Positions 20,037 to 43,946 of a stretch of 64,000 nucleotides of DNA are shown here, piece by piece. The translations under genes were made by a program, and so were the position numbers. This stretch comes from an uncultured Ignavibacteriales bacterium (lineage in GTDB: Bacteria > Zixibacteria > MSB-5A5 > GN15 > FEB-12): positions 3,983-67,982 of the forward strand of contig CAZGMK010000015.1 in NCBI GenBank assembly GCA_964526835.1, in the 5' to 3' direction. The notes under the pieces were generated by a model. The model was not told the DNA's origin and did not search any database. It was given only the letters and a program-made list of their open reading frames with translations. Each line of letters starts with the position of its first letter. Position 1 is the stretch's first letter.

Positions 20037-22583
20037 ATGAAACGCGTTCCATTGCTTATCGCTTTGGTCCTGACCTTTTCATTTGGGCTGACCTTTGCAC
20101 AAGGTGGGCATATCGAGCTGGACAACCTCAGTGAGGTGACTTTCGAAGACGGAGGCACCACCTACTGGTTTGCCGGTATGCCTCTCGAGTTTGATATGCG
20201 CCTCACCAACGGCCCGGATCCTACCTTGGGTATTACCAACGGTTTCGGGTTTGGTTCGTCAACCGGCGGTACCTACACGCCCGCTTCGATGGTTGAGGCC
20301 GTTGATCAAGGTACCCTGGATACCTGGTTTGACCTGACTCATGGCATCAACACGTTCAGTCTCACCGGCTCAGGCGTCGATACTGTCGCCTGGTACGGCT
20401 CGATCATGATGGGCCCCGGAATTCCGCCCGACTGGACCGGCATCTATGGCGTGATCTCGACCGGTGCTCTGGAAGTCGGCCATGAATACTGCCTCGACTC
20501 GAGCTACTTCCCGCCGTCAGGGACCTGGCTGTGGGCTCCGACCGGCGCCCCGACCTGGGGTGGCCCGTACTGTTTCGAGGCCGCTACTCCGCCGAACTTC
20601 CCGCCGGAGTTCACCACTTGTCCGCCTACCTACACCGGCAGCCACTGCAACACCATCTCACTGGACCTGGCCACGTTCGATGAAGAGGGCGATGCCGTCA
20701 GCTTCGACGTCACGACCGGCCCGGGTGCGGTGACCGACGTTTCGGGCAGTGGTCAGACGACTACCGCCAAGTACACCTTCGCGCCTTCGCTGGCCGATGT
20801 GGGTACCCACACGGTGGTTATCGAAGCCAGTGACCAGTTCGGCACCGGTGATCCCTGCACCTTCGACCTGAACCTCACCAACGAAGCTCCGGTGTGTGAC
20901 TTCGCCTCTGGTCCGTATCTGGTCGGCATGGGTAACACCTTCACCAAAACACTCACTTTCGATCAGGTCGACTGTGACCCGATTACCGATGTCAGTATCA
21001 CCGGCGTCACCCCGGCCCCGGTAGGCACCTACGACATCACCGGTAACGTCTTCACGTTCAACACGGTTGCCCCCGATGATGGCGACAATACTTTCGTGTT
21101 CGAGGTCACCGTCACTGATGGTGTCGGTGAATCCACATGCGAGTTGGTAGTTGAGGTCCTGTCGACTGAGCCTTTCGAGGTTCAGATCGAGAAGGTCCAC
21201 CACGCCATCCAGGGTATGCACCACATGGTTGACGTGACCGTCAACAAGGGTTCCGAGAAGCTCCAGGGCTTCGACATCCTGGTTGCCTACGACGCTTCCG
21301 CTCTGTATTTCGCCGAGGCTCTCCCGGGCGACGTCTACACCGAGTGCGGCTGGGAGTACTTCAACTACCGCTATGGCCCGAACGGCAACTGCGGCAGTGC
21401 CTGTCCGAGCGGCATGCTTCGTGTGGTCGGTATCGCCGAGACCAACAACGGCGCCAACCACCCGGCCTGCTACAACCCGGACCTGGAGTTCACCCTGTTC
21501 ACTCTGGACTTCCTGGTCACCGACGACCGCACTTTCGAGTGCATGTATGTGCCGATCCGGTTCTTCTGGATGGACTGCGGCGACAACTCGCTGGCTTACA
21601 GCACCCAGGACGATCCTGATGCTGTGATCCAGGGCGTGAGCCGCTTCATCTATGACTACGGTCTCGATCCGATGATGGAGATCAGCAACATGACCACCGG
21701 TTTCCCGACCTACACTGGTGTTCAGGAAGAGTGCTTTGACAACGAGCCCGGCAAGCCGTTGCCGATTCAGTTCGTTGACTTCATCAACGGTGGTATCGAC
21801 ATCGTCTGCGCCGACTCGATCGACGCTCGTGGCGACGTCAACCTCAACGGTGTTTCGAATGAAATCGCGGATGCCGTACTGTTCAGCAACTACTTCGTTT
21901 ATGGTCTGGGTGTCTTCACGGTCAATATGGCTGGTCAGATTGCCGCTACCGACGTCAACGCTGATGGTCTGACCCTCAGTGTTGGTGACCTGGTTTATCT
22001 GATCCGTCTGGTCGTTGGCGACGCTCTTCCGTACTCGAAGCTGAGCACGGTTGAAGCCAACTACACCGTGGACGGCGGCGTTGTTTCGATCGACGCGACC
22101 ATGGGTGCTGCGTATCTGGTTGCCTCCGGCAATGTCACTCCGACACTGCTGGCCGACAACATGGAGCTGAAGTACAACTTCGACGGTTCCAACACGCACA
22201 TTCTGGTTTACTCGATGGAGCAGGGCGAGACCTTCCAGGGCGAGTTCATAGAGGCCGGTAACATCATCAGCGCCGAGTTCGCGACCTACGAAGGTGCGCG
22301 CGTCGTCGCCAGTGAGATGCCGACCAACTATGGTCTGGCCCAGAACTACCCGAACCCGTTCAACCCGGTCACCAATATCAGCTTCCAGATGCCGAATAAT
22401 GGTGACTACACTCTGACCGTTTACAACGTGACCGGTCAGGTTGTTGAGACGTTTGCCGGCAATGCTCAGGCTGGTGTCACCACCATCACCTGGGATGCCT
22501 CCAACCAGGCTTCGGGTATCTATTTCTACAAGCTCGAGGTTAACAACTTCTCCGAGACCAAGAAGATGGTCCTGTTGAAGTAA
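20037..22583 (+). CDS. Secreted multidomain scaffold: novel N-terminal domain, Ig/cadherin-like repeats, cohesin-like domain, internal dockerin, degenerate cohesin, T9SS-A/FlgD-like CTD
   Basis: AGGAG RBS; signal peptide; LQGFDILVAYDASAL; RGDVNLNG...EIADAV and TDVNADG...SVGDLVYL; QNYPNPFNP...ASGIYFYKL...KKMVLLK. Confidence 0.9.
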   Translation: MKRVPLLIALVLTFSFGLTFAQGGHIELDNLSEVTFEDGGTTYWFAGMPLEFDMRLTNGPDPTLGITNGFGFGSSTGGTYTPASMVEAVDQGTLDTWFDLTHGINTFSLTGSGVDTVAWYGSIMMGPGIPPDWTGIYGVISTGALEVGHEYCLDSSYFPPSGTWLWAPTGAPTWGGPYCFEAATPPNFPPEFTTCPPTYTGSHCNTISLDLATFDEEGDAVSFDVTTGPGAVTDVSGSGQTTTAKYTFAPSLADVGTHTVVIEASDQFGTGDPCTFDLNLTNEAPVCDFASGPYLVGMGNTFTKTLTFDQVDCDPITDVSITGVTPAPVGTYDITGNVFTFNTVAPDDGDNTFVFEVTVTDGVGESTCELVVEVLSTEPFEVQIEKVHHAIQGMHHMVDVTVNKGSEKLQGFDILVAYDASALYFAEALPGDVYTECGWEYFNYRYGPNGNCGSACPSGMLRVVGIAETNNGANHPACYNPDLEFTLFTLDFLVTDDRTFECMYVPIRFFWMDCGDNSLAYSTQDDPDAVIQGVSRFIYDYGLDPMMEISNMTTGFPTYTGVQEECFDNEPGKPLPIQFVDFINGGIDIVCADSIDARGDVNLNGVSNEIADAVLFSNYFVYGLGVFTVNMAGQIAATDVNADGLTLSVGDLVYLIRLVVGDALPYSKLSTVEANYTVDGGVVSIDATMGAAYLVASGNVTPTLLADNMELKYNFDGSNTHILVYSMEQGETFQGEFIEAGNIISAEFATYEGARVVASEMPTNYGLAQNYPNPFNPVTNISFQMPNNGDYTLTVYNVTGQVVETFAGNAQAGVTTITWDASNQASGIYFYKLEVNNFSETKKMVLLK

Positions 22584-22624
22584 GTTTGCTTTAGGCTTAT
22601 AGTAATAGTAAACGTGACCACGCT

Positions 22625-22656
22625 CCCCGGAGAGGTTAATCCCTCTCCGGGGTTCT
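22625..22656 (+). terminator. Hairpin after 20037-22583
   Basis: CCCCGGAGAGG-loop-CCTCTCCGGGG followed by TTCT (short U-tract). Confidence 0.55.
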
Positions 22657-23128
22657 AAACCGAGACGCCAAGCCAAGGAGTGACGCCAAATCGGATTGCT
22701 AAAGACTTAGAACTGAACCAACAGAACGAAAGAGTTTTACGATGACGACCCCACCTCGGCGCCAGCCGAATCATCTTGCCAAACGGTCGTCTTTTTTTTA
22801 TCTTGACAGGGAAGTCTGGGCGGCCCGACCGTCGGCTGCGCAGAGTGTTGCAACATTGCATAACAGGAAAGATCGCTGCAGTTCAGATAGTACTCTTCAC
22901 CGCAAAGCGCGATTCCTTGGAATACTGCAAGGGGACAGCTATCGTCCGCCAACTAACTGTTTGATTTGCTCTTGGGGCCGATAAGGCCCTGCCGGACATA
23001 TCGTTAAACGGACCTGACGACTACGGCTTCGGCCACCACCGGATCGCCGGAAGGACAGGATGAGACCTTCCCGGCATGATCAGAAAAGAAGCCGTTGGGT
23101 AAGGAAATTGCTCCCAACGGATAGTGAT

Positions 23129-24559
23129 ATGAAGCCTTTGATTCGGAATATGTTGCGCCCGCTTCGCCGGGTCATGCTCGCAGCCGCGCCGGCGGTCATA
23201 CTGATGACCGGCCTTGCGGCCGCTCAGGCCGATTATGTGCTGAAACTGGACACTGTCAGCGGCCAGCCCGGCGCCGCTATCGATTACTATGTCAACCTGG
23301 AGAACGCCGACGAGGTGGGCGGCTTCAACCTGCTGGTGGGCTACGATCCGACCGCCCTGTGGCCGCAAATGATTACCCTCAACGACACCCGCGCCGAGGC
23401 CTTCGAGGAGTTCGAGTTCAGCCTCAACGAAGCCGGCATCCCGGGCAACCTGCGAATGGTCGGCCGGGCCGATGCGCCCGGCGGCGATATCGGGCAGCCC
23501 CTGCCCGCCGGTGATGGCCCCGTGATCCGGATTCGCTTCGGGATCATAAATGACATCCAGTTCGCCGGCATGTGGGTGCCGGTCTGGTTTGAGTTTTCCG
23601 ATCCGCTGACCCAGGATGACAACACGCTCACCAACGTCGTCGGCTCAAAGATCGGTCAGGATGAGATAGACTATTACGACGGCTGGGTCAACATCATGGA
23701 GATGGGCGAGGTATTGCTCGGCGACGTCAATCTCAACGGTTTTGCCTGGGAGGTCAGCGACTACGTCTACCTGACCAACTACTTCATGATGCCGAGCCTG
23801 TATGTCCTGAATGCCCTGCAACTGGCCAACTCCGACATGAATCAGGATCAGATCCCGGCCACCATCGCGGATCTGGTTTACCTGATCAACAGAATCGTCT
23901 CCGGCGCCAGGCTTAACGCCGCAGCGGGGGACCCTTCGCTGCCGGTTGCTGTTCGCCTCGACGAGGCGCCCGACCGCACCAGCATCAGTTATAACGCCGG
24001 GTTCACGGTGGGCGGTGTGCTGCTGGTGCTCAGGGTGTCGGACAACTTCGACGAGTCGGATCTGATCCTCCGTCAGCAGCAGATGAGCTTGGTCACTGAA
24101 CGCCGGGGCGACCGTGTCAGTGTGTTCGTGCACAGCCGCGACGGGCAGACGCTGCCGGCGGGGCACTGGCCGCTCCTTACGACGCCCGCGGGGTCATCGG
24201 TCGAACTGGAGCAGGTGGAACTGGCCAGCGCCGACGGCCGCACCGCGCGCGTAGTGCATAATGGCGGACGGTCGTTGCCGGAGGGTTTCGAACTGGGCCA
24301 GAACTACCCAAACCCGTTCAATCCCACCACGACTATCGAGTTCAGTGTACCCCGACCCGGCCGGGTCAACCTGACGGTATATGATTTGCTTGGACGAAGA
24401 GTGGCGGTGCTGATTGACGATCTCCTCGACGCCGGCCGTCATCGAGTGGTTTTCGATGCTTCGATGATCGGCGGCGAGGTGGCCGCCAGCGGCGTATACT
24501 TCTACCGCCTGCAAACCGACCGAGCCACAGTCACAAGGAAGATGGTACTTTTGAAATAG
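23129..24559 (+). CDS. Secreted cohesin + internal dockerin + degenerate cohesin + T9SS-like CTD protein
   Basis: Start moved to MKPLIRN; signal peptide ends AAAQA; VGGFNLLVGYDP...GDGPVIRIRF; GDVNLNG..EVSDY and SDMNQD..TIADLVYL; QNYPNPFNP...RKMVLLK. Confidence 0.88.
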   Translation: MKPLIRNMLRPLRRVMLAAAPAVILMTGLAAAQADYVLKLDTVSGQPGAAIDYYVNLENADEVGGFNLLVGYDPTALWPQMITLNDTRAEAFEEFEFSLNEAGIPGNLRMVGRADAPGGDIGQPLPAGDGPVIRIRFGIINDIQFAGMWVPVWFEFSDPLTQDDNTLTNVVGSKIGQDEIDYYDGWVNIMEMGEVLLGDVNLNGFAWEVSDYVYLTNYFMMPSLYVLNALQLANSDMNQDQIPATIADLVYLINRIVSGARLNAAAGDPSLPVAVRLDEAPDRTSISYNAGFTVGGVLLVLRVSDNFDESDLILRQQQMSLVTERRGDRVSVFVHSRDGQTLPAGHWPLLTTPAGSSVELEQVELASADGRTARVVHNGGRSLPEGFELGQNYPNPFNPTTTIEFSVPRPGRVNLTVYDLLGRRVAVLIDDLLDAGRHRVVFDASMIGGEVAASGVYFYRLQTDRATVTRKMVLLK

Positions 24560-24617
24560 GCGATTTGCCATGCTTAGCGACCAGAGAGACAGCAAGCAAG
24601 CCCCAGGAGGTTACAAT

Positions 24618-27383
24618 ATGGTGAAGATGATGAGAATCCCGCTCGCAGCGATGATGTTGCTTCTGATTGTCGGCGGCGGCGCATCGGCGCAGATTCCGCC
24701 GGGCATCGAGTGTACCAATGACTACCTTGATTGTGGTGATGTCTCGGAGTCATCGGTCGATACAGTTCGACTGGTCAGCTTCGACGGTCGCCCGGGCGAT
24801 ACCGTCTGGCTGCCGGTATATCTCAAGACAAAGGACGATACCGTGTCCGGTTTTTCGATGATCATCGAATACAGCGACACCTATCTTACGCCTGTCAAGG
24901 CCAGCACCAATCCCGCCGACTCGCTCTACATCAAGTATGAACTCATGGGCGGGCTCCTGGAGGCCCAGCAGCGTTACTGGGACAGTCACCCAAATGACAG
25001 CCCGGATGTTTTCACGGCTGCGATCTCGCAGAACCCTTTCGATGAGGGAGCCATAACCTGCGGCTTCAACCTGTCGACCTTCGACAAGCCGGAGCGGATT
25101 TTCCCCGGCGGTGAGATCATCTTCCGTCTGGCCTTCGAGGTCGATGAAGCTATGCAGGAAGGCCAGACAGCCCAATTCCGCTGGTGGGAGATTAACGAGT
25201 ATTCGATAATCGACACGGGCCAGATGATCGCATACTGCGCGGACTGCCGCCGCACCAACCTGTCGGTGGACAGGACCACGACCTTCCAGGTGTGTGTCGA
25301 TTCGTCTATCAATCGCATCGATACCATCGACACCGGCCCGCCGGTCATAACCGATACTATCTGGCAGTGTGATGAGTATGCGGACACTACCATAATTGTC
25401 AATCGCACACGCAACCCCACTACCCGCGACGGTCAGTTCACGGCCAACCTCTCACCGCCGCCGGTGATAGCGAGTTTCACCAGTTCGGACCCGGACGACT
25501 CGGTCGGCACCAACCAGGGGTTCGTGCTGCAATGGACAGTGGACAACACCGACTCGGTTGTCATTTACCAAGATGCGAATGTGCTTCACACTTCGGTTCA
25601 GAGCAACGGTTTCTTTGCTGCGACCTCGCCATCGACTGCGGGCACATACACCTACACGTTATGGGCGTTCAATCCTTACGACAGTGTTTCGAGATCGATC
25701 GATATACTGGTTCAGGATGGAGATGAACCGCCGCCGGATGAGCATGCGCCGGTTATCAATGTGAACACTTCCTTCAGCATTGATGTCGGCAACACCCTGA
25801 ACTTCACCGTTAACGCCACCGACGTTGACAATGACTTCCTGACCCTGACGGCCACGAATCTGCCCGCGGGAGCCACTTTCCCCAGCGCCCAGGGCACCGG
25901 CTCGGCGTCCTCGACATTCAGCTGGACTCCCGGTTTTAACCAGACAGGCAGTCACACGGCCACTTTCCGGGCCGAGGACGCCACTTCGCGTGTAACCACG
26001 GTGAATGTCACGATCAACGTCAATGAACCCGAATTCGATAAGCTGTTCACCTCCTCTGTCGAAGGCAGCGCCGCTGGCGGCCTGCCCGGCAAGACCAACA
26101 TAGATTTCCCCATCAACCTGGTTACCAGCCAGACTGTCTACGGTGTGCAGTTTGACTTCCTTTACAGCAGTCAGAACTTCACGGTAACCGGGGTTGACGT
26201 AACCGACAATACGGCCGAATACGTAGTATATGAGAACATCGGACAAACGCCCGGCGAGGTTCGATTCGTGACCTTCGGCATGGCCAATGAGCCGATTGGA
26301 ACCGACGGCACGGAGATTCTGCTCGTCAAGATGGCTGTCCGGTCCAACGCCTCTCCGGGCCTGTATCCGATCTACCTGGAGGATGCCTGGGAATCGATCA
26401 ACCCCGACCCGTCGATCCCCTCGCTGCCCCTGATGAGCGACAGCGGGATCATCATGGTCGATGCTTACGGCGACGTTAACCTCGATACCCGCATCGACGT
26501 GGCCGACCTGGTCAGCATTGTGGGGTATATCATCGGCGACTTTCCCCTCGACCCGCGCCGCTATGAGGTTGCGGACATGGTGGTCGATGGTGTCGTGGAT
26601 GTATTCGACCTGGTGGCGGTGATCAACTCCATCTACGGGGCGCCGATCGACGCAGCGCCGCCGCAGTTCATCGAGGACCGTTTCGCCAGTGTCGAGTTGG
26701 ACTACGCCGCCATGGCCGGCGGGCTGTCGGATGAATTGACGATCCGCTCGGAGATGCCTGTCGACATCGCCGGTGTTCAGCTCGAGATTCTCTATGATCC
26801 GGGCGTGGTCCAGTTGGGCGTGCCGGAGTTGACCGAGGATGTTCCGCATCTGGCCCTGCGCAGCCGGGATGACGGCAACGGGCGGATGACCATCCTCATG
26901 TACTCCTCCAATCCGTTCGCGGCCGATAAGATAATCCGGGCGGGCCGCAGCGACCTGGTCAACATACCGATCAGGACGATCCGTCGGCTTGATGTCGGCG
27001 ACCGGTCGCAACTGGTTCTTAACCAGGCCAAACTGGCCACGGAGAACGCTATGGCGGTCAAGGTGCACGGTATGGATGCACCCCTGCCGACCAGTTTTCA
27101 CCTGGCTCAAAATTACCCGAACCCGTTTAACCCGACCACCACTATCGAGTTTACCCTCGGCGCACCGGGACAGACCGGCGCCCAGCGGGTAGATCTGAAT
27201 GTCTACAACATACTTGGCCAACAGGTGAAAGAGCTGATCAGCGGCACCCTGCCCGCGGGCAACCATCAGGTTACCTGGGACGGAACCGATGGCGCCGGGA
27301 AACAGGTTGCTTCCGGAATCTACCTGTACAGGTTACAGGTCGGCGACGCCAGCCAGGCCAAGAAGATGCTGCTGCTCAAATAG
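24618..27383 (+). CDS. Secreted scaffold: two cohesin-like domains, Ig and cadherin-like domains, internal dockerin, degenerate cohesin, T9SS-like CTD
   Basis: AGGAGG RBS before MVKMMRIP; VSGFSMIIEY...GEIIFRLAF; VYGVQFDFLY; GDVNLDTRIDVADL and ADMVVDGVVDVFDL; QNYPNPFNP...KKMLLLK. Confidence 0.9.
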   Translation: MVKMMRIPLAAMMLLLIVGGGASAQIPPGIECTNDYLDCGDVSESSVDTVRLVSFDGRPGDTVWLPVYLKTKDDTVSGFSMIIEYSDTYLTPVKASTNPADSLYIKYELMGGLLEAQQRYWDSHPNDSPDVFTAAISQNPFDEGAITCGFNLSTFDKPERIFPGGEIIFRLAFEVDEAMQEGQTAQFRWWEINEYSIIDTGQMIAYCADCRRTNLSVDRTTTFQVCVDSSINRIDTIDTGPPVITDTIWQCDEYADTTIIVNRTRNPTTRDGQFTANLSPPPVIASFTSSDPDDSVGTNQGFVLQWTVDNTDSVVIYQDANVLHTSVQSNGFFAATSPSTAGTYTYTLWAFNPYDSVSRSIDILVQDGDEPPPDEHAPVINVNTSFSIDVGNTLNFTVNATDVDNDFLTLTATNLPAGATFPSAQGTGSASSTFSWTPGFNQTGSHTATFRAEDATSRVTTVNVTINVNEPEFDKLFTSSVEGSAAGGLPGKTNIDFPINLVTSQTVYGVQFDFLYSSQNFTVTGVDVTDNTAEYVVYENIGQTPGEVRFVTFGMANEPIGTDGTEILLVKMAVRSNASPGLYPIYLEDAWESINPDPSIPSLPLMSDSGIIMVDAYGDVNLDTRIDVADLVSIVGYIIGDFPLDPRRYEVADMVVDGVVDVFDLVAVINSIYGAPIDAAPPQFIEDRFASVELDYAAMAGGLSDELTIRSEMPVDIAGVQLEILYDPGVVQLGVPELTEDVPHLALRSRDDGNGRMTILMYSSNPFAADKIIRAGRSDLVNIPIRTIRRLDVGDRSQLVLNQAKLATENAMAVKVHGMDAPLPTSFHLAQNYPNPFNPTTTIEFTLGAPGQTGAQRVDLNVYNILGQQVKELISGTLPAGNHQVTWDGTDGAGKQVASGIYLYRLQVGDASQAKKMLLLK

Positions 27384-27406
27384 AGGTCAGGGAGGTCATA
27401 GGAACC

Positions 27407-30400
27407 ATGAAGACGATGAACAGAATACTGATCACAACGCTGCTTCTGGCGCTGACCGCTTCGGTCGCCCTGGCTCAGACCGCGCCACCGGTCCTGGACC
27501 CGATCGGCGCCCAGAGCACCGACGAGAATGTTAACCTCAGCTTCGCCGTCAGTGCCTCCGATGCCGACGGAACAACGCCGACGTTGACGACTTCGACGTT
27601 ACCGACCGGCGCTTCGTTTACGGACAACGGTGACGGGACCGGTAGTTTCTCCTGGACCCCCGACTACACCCAGGCGGGCAGCTACGACGTTACATTCTAC
27701 GCCAATGACGCCGTATCCGCCGATGTTGACTCGGAGCTTGTGGTAATTACAGTCAACAATGTCAACCAGGCCCCGGTGCTCGATCCTATCGGATCGCAGT
27801 CGGTGGCCGAGGGGGTGCTGCTTTCGTTTACGGTTACGGCCAGCGATCCCGACGGGACCATCCCGACGTTGAGCACCTCGGCTTTACCGACGGGCGCTTC
27901 GTTTACGGACAACGGTGACGGCACCGGTAGTTTCTCCTGGACCCCCGACTACACCCAGGCGGGCAGCTATGATATAACCTTCACCGCCAACGACGGCGAC
28001 CTGACCGACGATGAGCTGGTAACGGTTACGGTAACCAACACCAACCAGGCCCCGGTGCTCGATCCTATCGGTTCGCAGTCGGTGGCCGAGGGGGTGCTGC
28101 TGTCGTTTACGGTCACGGCCAGTGATCCCGACGGGACCATCCCGACGCTGACGACTTCGACATTACCGACCGGCGCTTCGTTTACGGACAACGGTGACGG
28201 CACCGGTAGTTTCTCGTGGACCCCCGACTACACCCAGGCGGGCAGCTATGATATAACCTTCACCGCCAACGACGGTGACCTGACCGACGATGAGCTGGTA
28301 ACGGTTACGGTGACCAACACCAACCAGGCCCCGGTGCTCGATCCTATCGGATCGCAGTCTGTGGCCGAGGGGGTGGTGCTTTCGTTTACGGTTACGGCCA
28401 GCGATCCCGACGGGACGATCCCGTCGCTGAGCACCTCGGCTTTACCGACCGGCGCTTCGTTTACGGACAACGGTGACGGCACCGGAAGTTTCTCCTGGAC
28501 GCCCGACTACACCCAGGCGGGCAGCTATGATATAACCTTCACCGCCAACGACGGTGACCTGACCGACGATGAGCTGGTAACGGTTACGGTGACCAACACC
28601 AACCAGGCCCCGGTGCTCGATCCTATCGGATCGCAGTCTGTGGCCGAGGGGGTGGTGCTTTCGTTTACGGTCACGGCCAGCGATCCCGACGGGACTATCC
28701 CGACGTTGAGCACCTCGGCTTTGCCGACCGGCGCTTCGTTTACGGACAATGGTGACGGCACCGGTAGTTTCTCGTGGACGCCTGACTACACGCAGTCGGG
28801 CAGCTATGATATAACCTTCACCGCCAACGACGGCGACCTGACCGACGATGAGCTGGTAACGGTCACGGTAACCGAAGCCGGCAATCAGGCGCCGATTCTT
28901 GATCCGATAGGCCCGCAATCTGTCACTGAGGGCAATTTACTGTCCTTCACGGTCACGGCCAGTGATCCCGACGGGACTATCCCGAATCTCTTTACTTCGG
29001 CCCTTCCCAGCGGCGCTTCGTTTACCGACAACGGTGACGGGACCGGTGACTTTTCCTGGACGCCTACCTATACTCAGGCCGGAACCTACAACGTCACGTT
29101 CTACGCCGATGATGGTGACATCGCCGATGTTGAGGCAGTCGAGATCGTGGTTGTCGAAGCGGGCAATCAGGCCCCGGTGCTTGATCCTATCGGCGATCAG
29201 TCGGTAACTGAGGGTATTCTACTTTCATTTGCGGTTACGGCCAGTGATCCCGACGGGACTATCCCGACGCTGAGCACCTCGGCTTTGCCGACCGGCGCAT
29301 CGTTTACGGACAACGGTGACGGCACCGGTAGTTTCTCGTGGACGCCCGACTACACGCAGGCGGGCAGCTATGATATAACCTTCACCGCCGGCGACGGTGA
29401 CTTGACCGACGATGAGCTGGTGACCATCACTGTTGCCGAGGCCGGCAACCAGGCCCCGATTCTGGACCCGATTGGTCCCCAGAGTACCACCGAGGATGTT
29501 CTGCTTACTTTCAGCGTCAGTGCGACCGATCCGGACGGCACTATTCCGTCGCTGAGCACCTCGACTTTGCCGGCCGGCGCTTCGTTTACGGACAACGGTG
29601 ACGGCACCGGTAGTTTCTCGTGGACGCCCGACTACACCCAGGCAGGCGTTTACGACATCACCTTCACGGCTGATGACGGGGCTGCCACCGACGACGAGAT
29701 CGTGACAATAACAGTCAATGACGCCGGTAACCAGACACCGGTACTGGATCCCATCGGCGACCAGAGCACAACCGAGGGGGTGCTCCTCAGCTTCTCCGTC
29801 AGTGCTTCTGATCCGGACGGTGTGCCGCCGGCCCTGCTCACCTCCACACTACCTGCCGGCGCGACTTTCATCGACAACGGTGACGGGACGGGCGACTTTG
29901 CGTGGACTCCGGACTACACCCAATCGGGTGTTTACGATATCACATTTACGGCCGATGACGGGTTGGCCACGGACGATGAAGTCGTCACGATCACCGTGAT
30001 TGAAGCAGGTAACCAGGCCCCGATCCTGGATCCGATAGGCCCACAGAGTACAACCGAGGGCGTTGAGCTCAGTTTCATCGTAACGGCTTACGACCCGGAT
30101 GGGACGATTCCCACTCTGAGCGCTGCGGACTTGCCCTCGGGCGCTTCATTTACCGACAACGGTGACGGTACCGGCGACTTTGCGTGGACTCCCGACTTCA
30201 CCCAGTCCGGTCTCTATGATGTCACGTTCTACGCCAATGACGGCGCCCTGGCCGACCTCGAGATTGTGACTATTACAGTTGCCGATGTCGGTAACCAGGC
30301 CCCTATCCTGGATCCGATTGGCCCGCAGAGCACTACCGAGGATGTCCTGCTGTCGTTCACCGTCAGCGCAACCGATCCCGACGGCACGATTCCATCGCTG

Positions 30401-36119: not shown

Positions 36120-36148
36120 TTGACAAGGGTTTTGGCCAACATTATAAT
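36120..36148 (+). promoter_or_regulatory. Perfect consensus sigma70 promoter
   Basis: TTGACA (36120-36125)-N17-TATAAT (36143-36148). Confidence 0.85.
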
Positions 36149-36586
36149 GTTATTGCTATCGCCCTAGTGCGGTGGCATTGCAAAATGGCGTGGTCTCACG
36201 TAATTCTCGCTTGGTGATTGGGTTTTCACTCAAGCTCATAATGTATGGCTTCGGTAGAGATGCTGTACGTGAAGGTTGACGAAGAACGTTTCTAGGCAAT
36301 TGCTTTGATGTACGCAAGCTTTGTATTTCCATTGCTTCAGAACGCGAAACTACTCAACCCTGAGGGCTGGCGTATATGATGCGCCCGGCGCTCGATTCGG
36401 ACGTAAGGAGGTGTACCCCGCAGCAGAGTAATTGAAACAAACTGACGGTTGCATTTTGATGAAAAGGGTATCCCGCCCGAGACCGCATATAAGGACGAAC
36501 CTTTCACTCGGTCGAAGGATGATGCCCGGACACGAAAGCATTTTCTTGTTGGGAACTTGTTAACTTCTTATCAAAAGGAGCGATTG

Positions 36587-39500
36587 ATGACCAGGAGAAT
36601 TTCTACTCTGATGATTCTCTCCTTACTGGTAGTCGCCCTCATGGCTATGTCGGTTTCCGCCGCCAAGGCCCCCCAGAGCACGCGCATAATCAGCCCGGAC
36701 GCAAAGAGGGTTATGCAGTATGCGCTGCCGATGGCGGGCGCCGAGACGGCGACCTTTGGCTCTTCGAGCAAGGGCCAGACCGAACAGGCCCTGGGCATGG
36801 CCAACCCGCCGAATTCCGGTTCGCCCGGTATGGCCGTTGGCCTGACCACCTACGACTATCAGCACAACGGCCGTATGCCCCGCATGGTCGACTGGGGCTA
36901 CGATGCCACCCAGGGATTCGCCATTCACTTCCTGTGGATGTGGATGGAGGGTTCGACCATTGCGAACCGCAAATACGCCTATAACGCCTGGAAAGACAAC
37001 GCCAGCGATCTGGCCTTCCCTTACACCGGGGCATCTGAAGTCCAGGACGATGGTGGTATGGCCGGTTACGTGGCGCTTGATGTCACCGACACCGACTACG
37101 GTGACGGCATCAACCTGCCGAACCTTGCCGTGCCTTCAGGCCACGAACACACCGGCGATGGTGTGTATCGTGTTACGACCTACTGGGATTTCACACCGGT
37201 CATGGGTTTCTTCAACACGAGCTCAGCGGTTTCGGATGCGGTTTGGCAGTATGCCTTGCAGCCGGATGGCGAGTATGTCATCTGGCCGTCGATGGCCTAT
37301 CAGGACATTCCGGGCAATGACCCGGTGCTGCACGTTTTCGCGCAGGAATCCAAGCCTGATGCGGCCGATCCGCAGTCGATCTACTACTTCCGTAAGGTTG
37401 GTTATCAGGATGCCGGTACCTGGGATTTCCCGCCTTACGTTGTCGACACCGTCTTTGACATCGCTCAGGATGTCACCGCTTCCAAGACCAATGGCAAGGT
37501 TGCGTTGGTGTGGGTGGCCAACCTGCCGGCTCCCGGCGACTGCGACACCTGCTCCGACAACACGGGCAACCACGCCGAGGTCAGTGTCCAGTTGGACAAT
37601 GATATGTACTATCAGATATCGAACGACTTCGGTGCGACTTTCCAGCCTCGTGTCAACCTGACGCAGAACCAGAGAGGCGTGGACGGTTATCGTCCGTATA
37701 CCGACCTGCAGTCTCTGATCACCTCCGACAACAACCTGCACATAATCTGGACCGGCCGTGTCTGGGAAGGCTCGGCTGAGCCGACCACGGCTTACACCTG
37801 GCGCTGCCGTGTTTTCCACTGGAGCGAGCTGGTTACCTGCGGTCCGCGTACCGTGGCTGATCTGGAATGGGATCAGACGACTTGTGACGGTGGTTCCTGG
37901 AACCAGTTGAACGCCGCCAAGCCGGGCCTCGGTGAATGTAACGGCCGTCTGTATGCCACCTGGACGCAGTTCAACAACACGCCGGAAGGCGACACTGCCG
38001 ACTGCGCCCAGCGCGGTCTTGACGGCAGCGATTTTGTTGGTGCGGCCAACGGTGAGCTGTGGGTTTCGGTGTCTGAGGACCTCGTTGGTGTGCTTTGGGA
38101 CAAGCCCCGTAACATGACCAACTCCCCGAGCCCGGGCTGCGATCCTGAGGGCGGCAGCGATCCCTGTGATTCCGATCACTGGTCGTCGATAGCCCGTGAG
38201 GGTTACGGCTACGGCGCTTCGACCGGCTACGGCGCGAATGTTCCGGACTCGGCCAAGGTGGACGTTTCCGGTTCTTACACCGGCGACGCCTACATTCCGA
38301 TGCAGTACATCCACGACATCGATGCCGGTGGTATCGTACAGGATGAGGGTACCTGGCAGGAAAACCACGTAGTGTGGTTCTCGCTTGCCTGTGTCGACCC
38401 GGTTGAGACCAAGTTGTTGTCGGTCAGCCCGTCAGAGGTCGGCTACCCGGCCTGGACCGATACCGACGTGAGCAACACCGGCGACACCACCCTGGTACTT
38501 GAGAATACCGGTAACGCCCAGTTCACGGCCAACTACTCGATCACCATGAGCACCGACGGCAGCATTACGCCGAGCTCAGGTAACGTGACGATCCCGGCCG
38601 GCTGCAACAACACGACCACCCTGCCGATCACGTTCACTCAGGGCAGCGGTACCAGTGTGGCTGGTGAACTGACCTTCACGGGTTCGTTCGACAACTCGCC
38701 GCGGGTGGTCCCGCTCGAGTGGTTCTTCGTTGATACCCTTATCCCGCCGAAGTGGGATACTGTTTATGTGGACGACGGTACCAAGGCCGCGGCTCTGGCT
38801 CTTATCGTTGCCAACAATGGTAACAAGGGTAATCAGGGCAGAGGCCACGTGAACCTCGACTACTTCGACTACGGTGACTGCGACGTCTATCCTGAAGGCG
38901 GCGATGATCTGTATCCGGGCGATGCCTCGATCTATCTGTACGATGGTTCGAAGATCATCTGCTGGGATGACGCCGGTACTCCGGTCTGCGACGCCTCTAT
39001 CTTCGATCGTAACTGGATCCAGGGTGGCTTCGTGCCCGGCGCCTACAGCAGCGCCGACGTTGTTCCGGCCTGGGTGCCCACCCCGGGCGGTACGCCGGTT
39101 GGTGACTTCTTCACCGCCACCTACTACAACCGCGACACCACTATCCAGATCGACGAGCTGACCTTTGGTCCGGACAGCCCGACCAACCCGAACTGGATGA
39201 TTCAGGTCGCCAAGTTCAGCAACCTGACCGGCAGCGATATCAGCGGTCTGGCTATTGGTGAAGGCATCGACTGGGATGTCCCGTCCGACTCCGCTTCCTG
39301 GAACAACTCGGGCTTCGACGCTACGCGTCGCCTGATGTATCAGGTTGGTTCCGAGTTTGGTCAGGACGATCAGTGTCAGCCCAACGACGACCGCTACGGT
39401 GGTCTGGCTGTGGCCGCCCAGTATGACGGCACCAACTGGACCGAAGCCACTTACGGCCTGTACACCCTCGACAACTCGACCCAGGTGTATCCGTTTGGCG

Positions 39501-39982
39501 GTTTCGACGATGACTCGTTGTGGAAGTACATGGAGCAGAACAGCGGTTTCTCGATTTCCGATGCGACCGACGATGACCTGCACATGATGGCCACGTACCA
39601 GTGGAACTACACGCTGACCGCTTCCGGTGAGCTGGTGGTTTACACCTGTCTGGTGACCGAGAAGGCCGGTGAGGCCGCCTTCCTGGCCGCCTGTGATGAG
39701 TGTCTGGCTTACGTGGACAGTGAGTTCAAGCCGGGCGGCGGCGAGACCTGCTGCAACCTGCGCGGCGACATCGACCACAGTGGCGCCGGTCCGGACATCT
39801 CCGACTTGGTCTACCTGGTGAGCTATATGTTCTCCGGTGGCACGCCTCCTCCGTGTGAAGAAGGCGGCGTTTACCTTGAGGCCGACGTCGACGGTAGTGG
39901 CGCCGGTCCGGACATCTCCGACCTGGTTTACCTGGTGAGCTACATGTTCTCCGGTGGCCCGGCCCCGGTTCCGTGTCCGTAA
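36587..39982 (+). CDS. Large Cys-rich secreted protein (probable propeller-like region, Ig-like and beta-sandwich regions) with C-terminal dockerin
   Basis: AAGGAG RBS before MTRRISTL; signal peptide; VGLTTYDYQHNG; LSVSPSEV...LVLENTGNA; two copies of GAGPDISDLVYLVSYMFSGG framed by Cys; no CTD. Confidence 0.9.
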   Translation: MTRRISTLMILSLLVVALMAMSVSAAKAPQSTRIISPDAKRVMQYALPMAGAETATFGSSSKGQTEQALGMANPPNSGSPGMAVGLTTYDYQHNGRMPRMVDWGYDATQGFAIHFLWMWMEGSTIANRKYAYNAWKDNASDLAFPYTGASEVQDDGGMAGYVALDVTDTDYGDGINLPNLAVPSGHEHTGDGVYRVTTYWDFTPVMGFFNTSSAVSDAVWQYALQPDGEYVIWPSMAYQDIPGNDPVLHVFAQESKPDAADPQSIYYFRKVGYQDAGTWDFPPYVVDTVFDIAQDVTASKTNGKVALVWVANLPAPGDCDTCSDNTGNHAEVSVQLDNDMYYQISNDFGATFQPRVNLTQNQRGVDGYRPYTDLQSLITSDNNLHIIWTGRVWEGSAEPTTAYTWRCRVFHWSELVTCGPRTVADLEWDQTTCDGGSWNQLNAAKPGLGECNGRLYATWTQFNNTPEGDTADCAQRGLDGSDFVGAANGELWVSVSEDLVGVLWDKPRNMTNSPSPGCDPEGGSDPCDSDHWSSIAREGYGYGASTGYGANVPDSAKVDVSGSYTGDAYIPMQYIHDIDAGGIVQDEGTWQENHVVWFSLACVDPVETKLLSVSPSEVGYPAWTDTDVSNTGDTTLVLENTGNAQFTANYSITMSTDGSITPSSGNVTIPAGCNNTTTLPITFTQGSGTSVAGELTFTGSFDNSPRVVPLEWFFVDTLIPPKWDTVYVDDGTKAAALALIVANNGNKGNQGRGHVNLDYFDYGDCDVYPEGGDDLYPGDASIYLYDGSKIICWDDAGTPVCDASIFDRNWIQGGFVPGAYSSADVVPAWVPTPGGTPVGDFFTATYYNRDTTIQIDELTFGPDSPTNPNWMIQVAKFSNLTGSDISGLAIGEGIDWDVPSDSASWNNSGFDATRRLMYQVGSEFGQDDQCQPNDDRYGGLAVAAQYDGTNWTEATYGLYTLDNSTQVYPFGGFDDDSLWKYMEQNSGFSISDATDDDLHMMATYQWNYTLTASGELVVYTCLVTEKAGEAAFLAACDECLAYVDSEFKPGGGETCCNLRGDIDHSGAGPDISDLVYLVSYMFSGGTPPPCEEGGVYLEADVDGSGAGPDISDLVYLVSYMFSGGPAPVPCP

Positions 39983-40037
39983 TTTAGCTGACTGATTCGG
40001 GATCACATTTGTAGTGATTCCATCCGAATACAGCACC

Positions 40038-40071
40038 GCCATCCCCGCCTTCGGGCGGGGATGGCCTTTTT
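40038..40071 (+). terminator. Rho-independent terminator with cUUCGg loop
   Basis: GCCATCCCCGCC-TTCG-GGCGGGGATGGC-CTTTTT. Confidence 0.92.
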
Positions 40072-40349
40072 ATGTCTTGGAGAACCGCGGAACGTGGCTA
40101 TATTTAGGCGTCTGCATGCTCAATACCTGCATGAGCGTGACCGGGCATCCCGGCAAGCGTCGCCGGGTGTGGCCATCGAATCACGCATGAACCTAACCGG
40201 TCCATCATGTGTTGTATTCGTATAACTATGGGCAATTCGGCTGTGGTGGAACGCCCGCCCGAAACTGCTGCCAGAGGTAAATGATCGCAGGAAAAGTGTC
40301 GTCAATAGATAACAGCAACAATAGCCTTTCTAACTCAGCGGAGCATTTC

Positions 40350-42740
40350 ATGAACTCACAGCGAACAATACCGACGCAACTGCTGGCCATTGTCGGGGCG
40401 GCGGCGCTGGTGCTGGCGCTAGGGCTGCCGGCGCAGGCGGAGTACAAGTCCGACAGGCCCCCACCGAGACCGTATATTATCGAGGGAGTAGTGACGGTGG
40501 TCTTCGCCGATCATGCCAATCTCTCCAACTACAACGATGGCTTCAAGAGGGCGAACTTCGCCCTGCCGACCCTGGATGCGGTGCTCGAGCAGTTCGAGGC
40601 CGAGTCGGCCAGAAGGCTGTTCCCCTGGGAGAAACAGCGCCCCGACAAGTCATCGAGTATGCCCGACTACACGCGCTACTGGGAAGTGAAGTTCCCCGCC
40701 AAATACGACGTAGCCGAGTTGATCGAGGCCCTGGAGCGGAATCCGAATGTCCGCCAAGCCGAGCCGGTATGGGCCCTGCCGCTGGCAGCCACGCCCAACG
40801 ACCCGAGTTTCAACAGCCAGTGGCACTGGAACAACGGCGGCCTGGATATGGAGGGCGGGTGGGATTACGAGACAGGTAGCGAGTCGATCGTGGTGGCTAT
40901 CATCGATTCCGGCGTCAACCACAATCACCCCGACATCAGGCGGCACCTCTGGATCAATCCTGGCGAGGATATCGACGGCGATATGGAGCCCTTCGATGTG
41001 GACGACCTGAATGGTGTCGACGATGACGACAATGGTGTTGTCGACGACCTCAACGGGTATGATTTCTTCACCGGGATCAGCAATCCGCACCCGGGGGAGG
41101 ATGCCGGCACGCCCGACCCGGACTACAATGACTTCAACGGCCACGGCACCGGCTGCGCCGGAATCGTCTCCGCCATCACCAACAACAGCAGCTACGTGGC
41201 CGGTATGGCCGGCGGCTGGACCGAGGGACAGCGCTTCTACCGTGGGGTGAGCATTATGGCCCTGAGAGTGGGCGCCACCGCCTCCGACGGCAACGGCTAT
41301 GTGAACTCCAATAACTGCGGCACGGCCATTCAGTACGCCGCCCGCAACGGCGCGCATGTCATAAACTGCTCCTGGGGGGCGACCAGCACCGCCACCATGA
41401 ATGCGGGTATGGTCTTGGTTGACTCGGCGGGTGTTACGATTACCCACGCGGCGGGTAACGACAACGCCAACGACCCTGATTACCTGGACGCAGACCCCGG
41501 TGGCGTGCAGGTCCTGTCGGTCGCCTCGGTGACCGGAAGCGATGTCAAGTCGTCGTTCTCCAACTACGGTTTCTGGGTTGACGTGAGCGCCTACGGCGAT
41601 GCCATTCTGATGCCCTGGTCGAACCAGTACAGCCCCACGACCAGCACCTCGTGGGGAACCTCGTTCGCGGCTCCGATGGTGGCCGGGCTGGCGGCCCTGA
41701 TTCGCTCCGCCATGCCGTCGCTCACCAAGGAGCAGGTCGACTCGATCATCATTAACACCGCCGATGACGTCAACGGCGTCAACCCTTCGTACTTCGGCAT
41801 GCTCGGCTCAGGCCGGATCAGCGCCAGCGCAGCGCTCGGCGGCCTGGCCAATGCGAAGTTCGTGGCGGATGTCTACGAGGGCCCGGCCCCCCTCACAGTG
41901 CAGTTCACCGATCAGTCGCCCTACTTGCCGACCGCCTGGACCTGGAGCTTCGGCACCGGCGACAGCGCCGGTGTGCAGAATCCCCAGTATACGTACAACG
42001 ATCCGGGCATCTACGATGTCTCGCTGATAGTCGACGATAGCGTTAGCCTTGGTCCGGGCGAAGAGCATTTGAGAAACCTGATCTGGGTGACCGCCGATAC
42101 CCTCAAGATGGACTCGGTCATTATCGAGCGCGGGGGAACAGCGGTAGTTGGGGTTCGCGTTTCCAATACCTCGCTTCTGGCGGAGCTTCAGTTCGCCTTT
42201 GATTTCACCAACGACGACGGCATCGCGCTGGACAGCTTCACGGTTACAGGTACGCGCACCGATTATTTCTACGATGTCAGTTTGAACGGGCTCTCGGGCC
42301 AGAAGCAGTCCATCAGGTTCCGCCCGGACGACCCCGCGAGCGGCTCCTCGAATTATCTGCCGGCCGACACCGGCGCTATTCTGAACCTGTGGTTCTCGGC
42401 GGCCTCTTACGCACCGCCCGCGGCGGTGGTCGTGATCGACACCACCCACATCGGCACCAAGACAACCAAACTGACCTCGATCTGGGGTGAGCTGGTTCCG
42501 GTGATCGTGCCCGGAAAGGTGGTCGTTAACGCCTGCGGACGCGGCGATGTCGATTGCAGCGGCGCCATCGATATCCAGGATCTGGTTATTCTTGTCGCCT
42601 TCATGTTCCAGGGCGGCCCGCCGCCGGATCCCTGGTATACCGGCGATGTGAACGGCGATGGAGCCGGCCCGTCGATCGACGACCTGGTCTACCTGGTGTC
42701 TTACATGTTCAGTGGCGGCCCGCCCCCTCCGCCGATGTGA
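40350..42740 (+). CDS. Secreted S8 subtilase + PKD + cohesin-like domain + C-terminal dockerin
   Basis: Start moved to MNSQRTIP; triad VAIIDSG, NGHGTGCAG, GTSFAAP; PKD (PLTVQFTDQS...WTWSFG...YTYNDPGIYDVSL); cohesin-like LAELQFAF...GAILNLWF; dockerin GDVDCSG..DIQDL and GDVNGDG..SIDDLVYLVSYMFSGGP. Confidence 0.95.
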   Translation: MNSQRTIPTQLLAIVGAAALVLALGLPAQAEYKSDRPPPRPYIIEGVVTVVFADHANLSNYNDGFKRANFALPTLDAVLEQFEAESARRLFPWEKQRPDKSSSMPDYTRYWEVKFPAKYDVAELIEALERNPNVRQAEPVWALPLAATPNDPSFNSQWHWNNGGLDMEGGWDYETGSESIVVAIIDSGVNHNHPDIRRHLWINPGEDIDGDMEPFDVDDLNGVDDDDNGVVDDLNGYDFFTGISNPHPGEDAGTPDPDYNDFNGHGTGCAGIVSAITNNSSYVAGMAGGWTEGQRFYRGVSIMALRVGATASDGNGYVNSNNCGTAIQYAARNGAHVINCSWGATSTATMNAGMVLVDSAGVTITHAAGNDNANDPDYLDADPGGVQVLSVASVTGSDVKSSFSNYGFWVDVSAYGDAILMPWSNQYSPTTSTSWGTSFAAPMVAGLAALIRSAMPSLTKEQVDSIIINTADDVNGVNPSYFGMLGSGRISASAALGGLANAKFVADVYEGPAPLTVQFTDQSPYLPTAWTWSFGTGDSAGVQNPQYTYNDPGIYDVSLIVDDSVSLGPGEEHLRNLIWVTADTLKMDSVIIERGGTAVVGVRVSNTSLLAELQFAFDFTNDDGIALDSFTVTGTRTDYFYDVSLNGLSGQKQSIRFRPDDPASGSSNYLPADTGAILNLWFSAASYAPPAAVVVIDTTHIGTKTTKLTSIWGELVPVIVPGKVVVNACGRGDVDCSGAIDIQDLVILVAFMFQGGPPPDPWYTGDVNGDGAGPSIDDLVYLVSYMFSGGPPPPPM

Positions 42741-42807
42741 GGTGACACCTCGCCGCTTCAAGTGAACTTCTCGCGGGCAGATGTATATCATCCGCCCGCA
42801 GTAACTG

Positions 42808-42844
42808 CGCCCGGTGAACATATAACTGTCACCGGGCGTTTTTT
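42808..42844 (+). terminator. Rho-independent terminator
   Basis: CGCCCGGTGA...TCACCGGGCG followed by TTTTTT. Confidence 0.8.
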
Positions 42845-42847
42845 CTA

Positions 42848-42876
42848 TTGACGCCTTGCTTGCCGGGCAGTATCAT
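42848..42876 (+). promoter_or_regulatory. Sigma70-type promoter
   Basis: TTGACG-N17-TATCAT upstream of 43062. Confidence 0.6.
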
Positions 42877-43061
42877 TTGCCGCATAAGGTGAGTCATGCG
42901 GTGTGAAAATGCATGCGGGCCTGCCCCTTTTGCAAGGAGGTGACGCCTGATCAAAAAGCGTTAACTGATTTTACCTTGTTTGACTCGTTAATTGCCATAC
43001 GTTGACAGATAGATTGAAGAGAATGGTAGTGTTTAGATAGACGCATGGAGGCTATGCAAGT

Positions 43062-43946
43062 ATGAAGACAAAGTTATTGACAGTTCTGGCGGTTTTGACT
43101 CTGGGCGCCTGCGGCCTGGCGTGGGGGCAGAGTGTATCTGTGGACCATGTTGACGGCACGCTCATCGGCTCCGATACCCTGATGCAAGACAGCACGTACA
43201 CTTTCTATCTTCGTTGGCAAGGTCCTGCTGATCGTAACGTGGACGGGGTCACTACGGGCTGGCGGGTACACTCGCCTGATGGCGGCACTTGGACTACGAC
43301 TGTCATTGACACAACCGGTACCCTGGGAGGAGCCCAATTCGATTTGGTCTGGCAGCTTCAGCCAGCCGGGTGGGAAGGTAATGTTACCGGCTCTGGTGCT
43401 GATACGATCGGTGTAGGCGGCGCCAAGATGTTTGGTCCGGGCATGCCGGCAGGCTTTGACGATATCGTCAACACCATCACCATCGGCCCGATCGGCCAGG
43501 ATGACGGTAAGCAGATTTGTCTGGACTCTTCGTACTACCCACCGTCCGGTCTGTGGAAGTGGGCTGCAGAGGGTAGCGTTGACTATTTCCCTGTCTGGGA
43601 CGGTCCGCATTGCTATACCATTGAAGTTGCAAGCGACGTTTCCGCCCGTCCCTCCGATGGCCTGCCCACCCGGTGGATGATGAGCCAGAACTACCCGAAC
43701 CCGTTCAACCCGACCACCGAGATCGCTTTCGACGTCCCCTCGCGCTCTCATGTCACCCTGAATGTGTACAACGTTCTCGGCCAGCAGGTGGCGACCCTTG
43801 TCGACCAGGAGCTGGCCCGCGGGAGCTACACGGCCGACTGGGACGGTACCAGCACCTCCGGGACCGCCGCGGCCAGCGGGGTTTACTTCTACCGTCTGGA
43901 AGCCGACCAATACATCGACACCAAGAAAATGGTGCTGATGAAGTAG
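43062..43946 (+). CDS. Small secreted protein: one novel Cys-containing domain + T9SS-like CTD
   Basis: GGAGG RBS; signal peptide; domain homologous to the N-terminus of 20037 (TGSGADT, GPGMP, CLDSSYYPPSGLWKWA, WDGPHC); QNYPNPFNP...KKMVLMK. Confidence 0.9.
   Translation: MKTKLLTVLAVLTLGACGLAWGQSVSVDHVDGTLIGSDTLMQDSTYTFYLRWQGPADRNVDGVTTGWRVHSPDGGTWTTTVIDTTGTLGGAQFDLVWQLQPAGWEGNVTGSGADTIGVGGAKMFGPGMPAGFDDIVNTITIGPIGQDDGKQICLDSSYYPPSGLWKWAAEGSVDYFPVWDGPHCYTIEVASDVSARPSDGLPTRWMMSQNYPNPFNPTTEIAFDVPSRSHVTLNVYNVLGQQVATLVDQELARGSYTADWDGTSTSGTAAASGVYFYRLEADQYIDTKKMVLMK

Follow-up and report, generated by a model that had tools for sequence, protein, structure and literature searches.

A domain family of Zixibacteria with a predicted cohesin-like fold as a possible receptor for dockerins

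What do the dockerins of uncultured bacteria bind, and can their receptors be recognised when these do not resemble known cohesins? Dockerin-like modules are common in uncultured phyla and their receptors are mostly unknown; cohesin-dockerin assembly is best known from Gram-positive cellulosomes. The question is raised by a stretch of 64,000 nucleotides (hereafter the window; positions 3,983 to 67,982 of contig CAZGMK010000015.1, assembly GCA_964526835.1) from an uncultured bacterium labelled Ignavibacteriales and placed by GTDB in the Zixibacteria. Several genes of the window encode cohesin-like modules or dockerins, and two of them, 20037 and 43062 (genes are named here by their first position), share a further domain of ~160 aa. 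An earlier note on this DNA proposed that the domain is a divergent cohesin or a new dockerin receptor and that 43062 is a monovalent anchor for one class of dockerins, called class A. Our results favour the view that the domain is a socket of cohesin type which receives protein modules, the class A dockerin being the most plausible ligand, and we give this reading a probability of roughly 0.45.

The shared block lies at aa 25-182 of 20037 (20109-20582, + strand), directly behind the signal peptide, and at aa 24-188 of 43062 (43131-43625, + strand). It was delimited with BLASTP and a family hidden Markov model (HMM). BLASTP aligned the two domain blocks at 44% identity across 79 aa (E 3e-17), and the C-terminal type IX secretion system (T9SS) tails of the two proteins separately from them (E 2e-24). 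Because the family HMM spans the full 158 aa in 20037 (E 2.8e-38, profile positions 2-161), the whole domain is common to both proteins, beyond its C-terminal half, and the two copies have a global identity of 35%. The segments proposed earlier (20100-20585 and 43130-43625) are off by a few bases at most, and every motif then listed is present in each copy: TGSGVDT in 20037 and TGSGADT in 43062, GPGIP and GPGMP, CLDSSYFPPSGTWLWA and CLDSSYYPPSGLWKWA for the CLDSSY[FY]PPSGxWxWA motif, and PTWGGPYCF and PVWDGPHCY, with two conserved Cys in each. A tblastn search of the window found no third copy beyond 20037 and 43062, the sole other trace being an EYCLDSS motif in gene 18504. The domain had also been described as belonging to no named family, in agreement with our scans: no model matched it in Pfam and NCBIfam searches of both proteins and of 71 family members, and a profile search of PDB sequences returned noise only (E 0.3 or worse).

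Searching with the 43062 domain recovered 70 proteins (E down to 4e-46). Their annotations go no further than hypothetical or T9SS type A sorting domain-containing, and those with a named source come from candidate division Zixibacteria. We searched 1.84 billion cluster representatives (50% identity clusters) exhaustively with a profile and obtained 1282 matches at E<=1e-3 and 532 at E<=1e-30. Scanning one genome per GTDB species with a profile of 10 sequences revealed 153 encoded relatives, nearly all in Zixibacteria metagenome-assembled genomes (MAGs); a few come from records that bear the label Ignavibacteriales, Calditrichaeota or GN15. A single MAG can carry 5-7 paralogs or more (at least seven in JBDRES01 and in JAGLXI01, at least six in JAJRTA01), counts that rest on the best 80 loci of the genome scan and are lower bounds. 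The domain is a large unnamed family, nearly confined to Zixibacteria. Locus L082 (1077-4481) has four consecutive genes of 258-274 aa, each for a signal peptide, the domain and a dockerin, and locus L061 has two consecutive lipoprotein-form genes; both are local tandem gene amplifications of the family.

Conservation within the family is high. In 441 aligned copies, ten positions are conserved in >95% (G88, D92, T/S93, D133, S/T134, W143, W145, P155, W157 and G159, numbered as the 43062 residue minus 22). The two Cys co-vary across unique domain copies, both being present in 373 of those with both positions aligned, neither in 16 and one only in 4, and they probably form a disulfide, which fits this covariation. 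The mature N-terminus reads S/A-[IV]-[ST]-L-D-H-V-D-G, with an internal His that is only ~50% conserved. A subfamily from outside the window (P0113, P0146, P0148) carries a Cys-rich or aromatic-rich insertion of 40-60 aa between the domain halves, because of which HMMER reports only the C-terminal half in these proteins. Apparent 'half-domain' repeats among the representatives were rejected as such, being full domains with long insertions.

The fold was predicted with AlphaFold2 for the 43062 domain from a 71-sequence alignment (model 1) and for P0029, a 47%-identical paralog made of a signal peptide, the domain and a dockerin (model 2). Model 1 is all-beta, with a predicted local distance difference test score (pLDDT) of 90.2 and a predicted template modelling score (pTM) of 0.87; model 2 reached a pLDDT of 91.1 and a pTM of 0.76. 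Foldseek placed 30 PDB entries at E<=1e-3 for model 1, most of them cohesins of types I, II and III, with the best match to 4uyp_C (E 5.8e-5) and the highest target template modelling (TM) score, 0.71, to 5nrm_A, at ~10% identity. For model 2 the top 37 hits were all cohesins, led by 5nrm_A (E 4.5e-6). The earlier note had named a match to an unrelated fold, for instance that of a carbohydrate-binding module (CBM), as the outcome that would speak against a cohesin; cohesins of all three types lead in both models, no CBM entry is among the top 50 Foldseek hits of either model, and Pfam CBM families gave no matches. The domain is therefore predicted to adopt the nine-stranded cohesin jelly-roll beta-sandwich fold, in a separate sequence family. 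Cohesins bind dockerins in a Ca2+-dependent manner by the 8-3-6-5 face of the sheet; in the new domain a run of conserved residues follows the predicted strands 3, 6 and 8, where they may lie on an exposed face.

Gene 43062 (43062-43946, + strand; 294 aa, from its open reading frame (ORF) and translation) is the minimal member of this family. As proposed in the earlier note, it encodes only a signal peptide (aa 1-22, 43062-43127, with a probable signal peptidase I site AWG|QS read from the sequence), the domain and, after a 20-aa linker, a C-terminal T9SS type A sorting domain at aa 211-291 (43692-43934; PF18962 E 5.4e-7, TIGR04183 E 3.4e-10 and 39.7 bits at a cutoff of 23). The promoter and terminator once ascribed to the gene have candidates on its two sides, both being consensus pattern matches: a promoter-like TTGACG-17-TATCAT at 42848-42876 (+ strand; 10/12 matches) and a terminator-like hairpin of 11 pairs followed by a T-run at 43972-43996 (+ strand), 26 nt past the stop. 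We also considered 43062 as a lipoprotein on account of its lipobox-like Cys17 and rejected this, given that the orthologs P0019 and P0023 are without Cys17 and keep the A-x-G|Q site.

Gene 20037 (20037-22583, + strand; 848 aa) carries the domain in a longer chain that runs from a signal peptide through the new domain, a beta-rich region, a canonical cohesin-like module, a class B dockerin and a beta-sandwich to a T9SS tail. The cohesin-like module (aa 388-518, 21198-21590, + strand) was detected (E 1.2e-45) with an HMM that had been iterated from the Pfam-confirmed cohesins of genes 23060 and 24570, and did not reach E 0.01 with the Pfam Cohesin model. The dockerin was located by motif scan as two segments starting at aa 600 and aa 639 (21834-22052, + strand), and aa 599-770 align with aa 221-415 of 23060 (E 1e-11). 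The sorting domain spans aa 771-845 (22347-22571, + strand; PF18962 E 1.2e-12, TIGR04183 E 2.1e-14 and 53.3 bits, cutoff 23). Both 20037 and 43062 have the signal peptide and the above-cutoff sorting domain of type A T9SS cargo. A canonical cohesin-like module and the new domain coexist in the chain of 20037, and the iterated cohesin profile never overlaps the latter.

The dockerins of the window fall into two sequence classes by motif scan. Class A is Cys-flanked, has the helix motif DISDLVYLVSYMFSGGPxP and stands at the C-terminus of 18504, 27407 (a single segment), 36587 and 40281; class B occurs in 20037, 23060 and 24570, three proteins that combine it with a canonical cohesin and a T9SS tail. 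Along the window, three class A dockerin proteins are followed by the domain with its T9SS tail, in the order 27407, 36587, 40281, 43062. Gene 27407 (27407-35995, + strand) encodes a giant He_PIG/Big_9 repeat protein by Pfam, its single dockerin segment being found by motif scan at 35906-35992. Gene 36587 (36587-39982, + strand) encodes a 1131-aa secreted protein with a signal peptide and a dockerin at 39767-39979; a Pfam scan of this protein gave no hit, and its dockerin segments were recognised by motif scan. It is a conserved secreted protein of ~1100 aa that stands upstream of the S8 gene, with a counterpart of ~1112 aa in L001/L002. Directly upstream of 43062, gene 40281 (40281-42740, + strand) encodes an S8 subtilase (Pfam E 4.8e-41) with PKD, a weakly cohesin-like module and a class A dockerin at 42546-42737 (segments at aa 756 and aa 789), which also matches Dockerin_1 in Pfam. 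The module between PKD and dockerin (42050-42530, ~aa 590-750) aligns in register but weakly with the canonical cohesin profile (hhalign probability 30%, E 5.5e-4), so that the protease may carry a cohesin-like module of its own. A search for class A dockerins yielded no more than 46 proteins, all short and in many cases from ORF calls that look truncated; the few with a name are Zixibacteria.

Orthologs of 43062 (45-57% identity) hold the same syntenic position in several Zixibacteria MAGs, and the gene order shared with a named Zixibacteria MAG indicates that the window, too, derives from this phylum. The pair of an S8 protease with class A dockerin followed by the domain with T9SS tail is found at six syntenic loci in at least five MAGs, recurring in L059, L001/L002, L060, L013 and L058 on the same strand, with a gap of 256-410 bp and a domain identity of 45-57%. 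These loci represent one deep conservation and not independent events, because the downstream GH35-like (glycoside hydrolase family 35) and GGT genes are conserved as well. Among the S8 ORFs of the sampled loci, 10 of 11 adjoin or are fused to a family gene, which is an enrichment within a biased sample because the loci were picked for containing the domain. Lipoprotein- and dockerin-form genes stand alone amid housekeeping genes, and the S8 link is the only one that recurs.

The forms in which the domain is encoded bear on its role. Three kinds of attachment occur among the 70 first homologs: a lipobox Cys with an acidic linker, in proteins of ~200 aa that end 5 aa past the domain; a T9SS tail, in proteins of ~290 aa like 43062; and a Cys-flanked two-segment class A dockerin 0-8 aa behind the domain, in proteins of ~260 aa, some of which have TSP3 repeats between the two. 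In 843 kb of loci, a local HMM search found 99 ORFs with the domain, 83 with one copy, 12 with two, 2 with three, one partial ORF with four, and L016 with five (P0071 has an identical layout). The five copies of L016 are 38-60% identical to one another and are joined by 6-10-aa linkers with no stalk. Arrays are also seen in P0099 (two copies) and P0075 (3+1 copies with a dockerin), and they end in a T9SS tail or a dockerin. With few exceptions the domain comes first after the signal peptide. Behind it, the chains of large members continue with Ig-like stalks (BACON_2, Big_9, He_PIG, cadherin-like, PKD, HYR) and end in a T9SS tail or a dockerin. The minimal proteins of signal peptide, domain and anchor show the domain to be the payload itself, acting at the envelope with no catalytic partner in its chain.

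A Pfam census of 77 mid-sized representatives found 21 T9SS tails, 19 TSP_3, 13 dockerins, various Ig-like domains, one S8 and one beta-helix, so that an enzyme domain is present in only ~3% of members (2/77). In the locus ORFs a catalytic or likely catalytic partner is likewise rare (2/99): L068 joins S8, the domain and a dockerin, and L080 joins a beta-helix, TSP3, the domain and a dockerin. These two layouts resemble the enzyme-CBM-dockerin arrangement and would suit a CBM-like unit that targets enzymes to their substrate, and the three invariant Trp with Asp, Ser and Thr could be taken for a sugar-binding site. CBMs are mostly enzyme-attached, however, and the structural searches above brought up none. 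The layout of L068 can also be read as enzyme-cohesin-dockerin, which has a precedent in Amy4 of Ruminococcus bromii (PMC4611034), and we consider a CBM unlikely here. Such a distribution of partner domains would be expected if the module belonged to a scaffoldin or an adhesin, and not if it were a CBM; the setting is that of scaffoldins, with arrays of up to five copies, anchor-only and adaptor-like forms, and dockerin proteins nearby.

A socket for dockerins is favoured because several lines point the same way: the fold, the scaffoldin-like layouts, the non-catalytic partners and the position after class A dockerin genes. It is favoured too because the domain and cohesin-like modules interchange in position. 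At the tip, 24570 has a canonical cohesin-like module and 20037 the new domain, before the same C-terminal cassette, and L068 carries the new domain where 40281 carries its weakly cohesin-like module. Finally, the near-invariant residues of the putative receptor have a counterpart in a similarly conserved helix motif of the class A dockerin. If so, the domain would be displayed at the outer surface and held there interchangeably by a T9SS tail, an N-terminal lipid anchor or a dockerin. We infer this exposure from the known role of T9SS tails and, for the lipoproteins, from the acidic stretch past the lipobox Cys, which we take to resemble the surface-lipoprotein export signal of Bacteroidota. 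Gene 43062 would then encode a monovalent T9SS-anchored receptor that tethers the upstream class A dockerin proteins, above all the S8 protease 40281, and in 20037 this socket would stand at the far tip of a protein held by its cohesin-dockerin-T9SS cassette. Multi-copy relatives may be scaffoldins, and relatives with domain and dockerin may be adaptors or self-associating units.

Several observations weigh against this reading, beginning with fold and sequence. The fold match is moderate (query TM 0.5-0.6, ~10% identity), and the cohesins found with model 1 are interspersed with cohesin-like folds of other function, namely YcnI, TTHA1873, CLIPPER and AgI/II domains. The Pfam Cohesin model (PF00963) matched none of 71 family members at E<=10. 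With hhalign, the family profile gave a probability of <=5% against six cohesin-like modules of the window and of 1% against the iterated 27-sequence cohesin profile, which does detect 23060, 24570, 18504 and aa 388-518 of 20037; an in-register hint in the beta2-beta3 pattern is not significant. Because profile-profile comparison with the window's cohesins finds nothing, the likeness to cohesins is one of fold only. Of the 'divergent cohesin' of the earlier note, the fold stands, as judged by two AlphaFold2 models and Foldseek, and the sequence homology does not, as judged by Pfam and hhalign. Membership among the cohesins is half supported: fold and architectural context agree with it and the sequence profile does not. 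Moreover, a set of >95%-conserved residues that includes D92, T93, D133, S134 and the three Trp could equally mark a small-ligand, glycan or metal site, and ten residues conserved to this degree would be unusual for cohesins.

Some of these points would suit a beta-sandwich that has a structural or metal-binding role and is no receptor, either a rigid spacer packing on the dockerin in the manner of an X-module or a relative of YcnI. The domain-dockerin linker of 0-8 aa agrees with such a spacer, and the pTM of 0.76 that the fusion model attains despite its 22-aa signal peptide suggests a fixed mutual orientation. YcnI (DUF1775, copper binding) and TTHA1873 are indeed among the Foldseek hits and, with CLIPPER, stand at E ~1e-4, below the cohesins in rank and in TM score. 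The domain differs from them in having no N-terminal His brace and no Pfam match to those families, including DUF1775. Most members are without a dockerin, and the minimal proteins (43062 and the ~200-aa lipoproteins) would carry no payload at all if the domain were a spacer. Of the readings weighed here we regard this one as the least probable.

The remaining points against a dockerin socket come from architecture and gene context. About one third of the family has a class A dockerin in the same chain, which would make these proteins self-binding. Canonical cohesins are available in the window, and even in the same chains as the new domain (20037, and with Pfam-recognised cohesins L012 and L028), and could serve the dockerins alone. 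A second block, in L037 and L018, pairs larger S8 proteases that have T9SS tails and no dockerin with large domain proteins. The last two points, together with the missing sequence link to cohesins, speak for a tip module that has a cohesin-like fold and serves adhesion or the binding of a ligand other than a dockerin: a polymer outside the cell, the surface of a mineral or of a cell, or a conserved component of the envelope. In such a case 43062 would be a stalk-less mini-adhesin and the S8 link would come from capturing a substrate or target close to the protease. Lipid anchor, T9SS tail and dockerin would be three ways of displaying one payload. Residues D92, T93, D133, S134, W143, W145 and W157 are kept in the 441 copies, also among paralogs of one genome, and such invariance is expected of a single conserved non-protein ligand.

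An N-terminal module ahead of an Ig-like stalk and an anchor is, in addition, the defining layout of fibrillar adhesins (PMC8286594). It is seen in many large relatives of 800-1800 aa and loosely in 20037, and not in 43062, the ~200-aa lipoproteins or the linker-only arrays, which are stalk-less. On the other side, dockerin-binding cohesins outrank every adhesin or lectin fold in Foldseek with both models. The domain is also highly conserved and lineage-restricted, whereas adhesin tip domains tend to vary and to occur across phyla. The stalk-less arrays with their short linkers, and the place after three dockerin genes, suit a scaffoldin better. We hold a tip module of this kind to be quite possible, and it is the alternative that we take most seriously beside the dockerin socket.

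Comparison with known systems places the proposed socket more closely. Our literature search found no paper linking Zixibacteria with dockerin, cohesin or type IX secretion. Cohesins of PF00963, such as those of R. flavefaciens ScaC (4UYP) and A. cellulolyticus ScaB (cohesin 6, 5NRM), share with the domain the predicted jelly-roll (target TM to 0.71), the occurrence in proteins that are not catalytic, whether alone with an anchor, beside a dockerin or in tandem, and the dockerin-rich genomes. The domain differs in its length (~20 aa more), in an additional hairpin that the model places between the last strands, in its conserved disulfide and ten near-invariant residues with no detectable sequence or profile similarity, and in its anchoring through a T9SS tail or lipid instead of SLH domains or sortase. 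One receptor with one anchor, as proposed for 43062, is the layout of R. flavefaciens ScaE and of R. bromii Sca2, whose single cohesin with a cell-wall anchor binds amylase and peptidase dockerins (PMC4611034). Sca2 and ScaE differ from 43062 in their sortase anchoring, Gram-positive hosts, canonical cohesin sequence and binding shown by experiment.

Amy4 of R. bromii consists of GH13, a cohesin and a dockerin, and its cohesin binds its own dockerin, leading to multimerisation (PMC4611034). Its layout is that of L068 and of the domain+dockerin dyads, with the difference that the Amy4 cohesin is canonical and that self-association of the Zixibacteria dyads is hypothetical. An argument against a receptor role, that the dockerin of a chain never fits the cohesin of the same chain, was dropped in view of this self-recognition and of the cohesin+dockerin cassettes that are routine here. 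The Cloacimonadota 'Ca. Stygibacter', of the FCB group, is inferred to have a T9SS-anchored cohesin scaffoldin with a dockerin-bearing S8 peptidase (PMC8542988). Genes 23060, 24570 and 20037 of the window fit its cellulosome-like picture; its scaffoldin has Pfam-recognisable cohesins, and the new domain forms a sequence family apart from these.

All four class A dockerin proteins of the window (18504, 27407, 36587, 40281) have a signal peptide and no T9SS tail, and we saw no recognisable outer-membrane export signal in them, though the host is presumably diderm. Because of this combination we also entertained a bolder version of the socket, in which the domain is a fourth, sequence-unrelated cohesin type for the class A dockerin. 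Carriers like 43062 would let folded cargo 'hitch-hike' from the periplasm through the T9SS, and dyads would chain head-to-tail into extended surface assemblies; we think it decidedly improbable that all of this holds.

Other features of the window complete the picture. A C-terminal cassette of cohesin, dockerin, beta-sandwich and T9SS tail recurs in 20037, 23060 and 24570 (20037-27383) and in L016 (4435-8283), where it stands behind the five-copy domain array. Because cohesin and dockerin share one anchored chain, this suggests that cassette proteins bind one another, forming chains or lattices. Gene 18504 (18504-19709, + strand) encodes a protein that ends in a class A dockerin (19503-19706) and whose N-terminus is cohesin-like by its match to the canonical cohesin profile. 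Its FEYCLDSSLVPLDS (18873-18914, ~aa 124-137), which includes the short EYCLDSS motif, resembles HEYCLDSSYFPPSG of the domain; against the family profile, hhalign aligned 20 columns only (E 0.009, not significant), and the likeness may be fortuitous or a remnant. The signal peptide of 18504 (18504-18600, aa 1-32) has a SRRSWL motif like that of twin-arginine translocation (Tat) substrates, and the other secreted proteins of the island are without such a motif. Outside the island, a restriction-modification or defence-like pair lies at 7499-11535 (- strand), where a T5orf172/MUG113 and ResIII helicase protein stands beside an Eco57I-type N6 methylase. At 59731-63432 the window encodes a further T9SS-exported protease, an M6 peptidase (immune inhibitor A-like) of 1233 aa that carries a T9SS tail and repeats of the SdrD_B and CarboxypepD_reg types.

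What appears to be new is a sequence family with a predicted cohesin-like fold inside a surface system of cohesin-dockerin type that would use T9SS tails and lipid anchors. If the domain is indeed a socket, Zixibacteria would own a lineage-specific class of receptor mounted on T9SS tails or lipid anchors. This would explain how dockerin-bearing proteases and giant adhesin-like proteins are retained at the surface, and it would offer an extra orthogonal binding pair for the engineering of protein scaffolds. If the ligand is another one, the domain would still be a major surface module of a phylum abundant in sediment and groundwater, and worth defining as a family.

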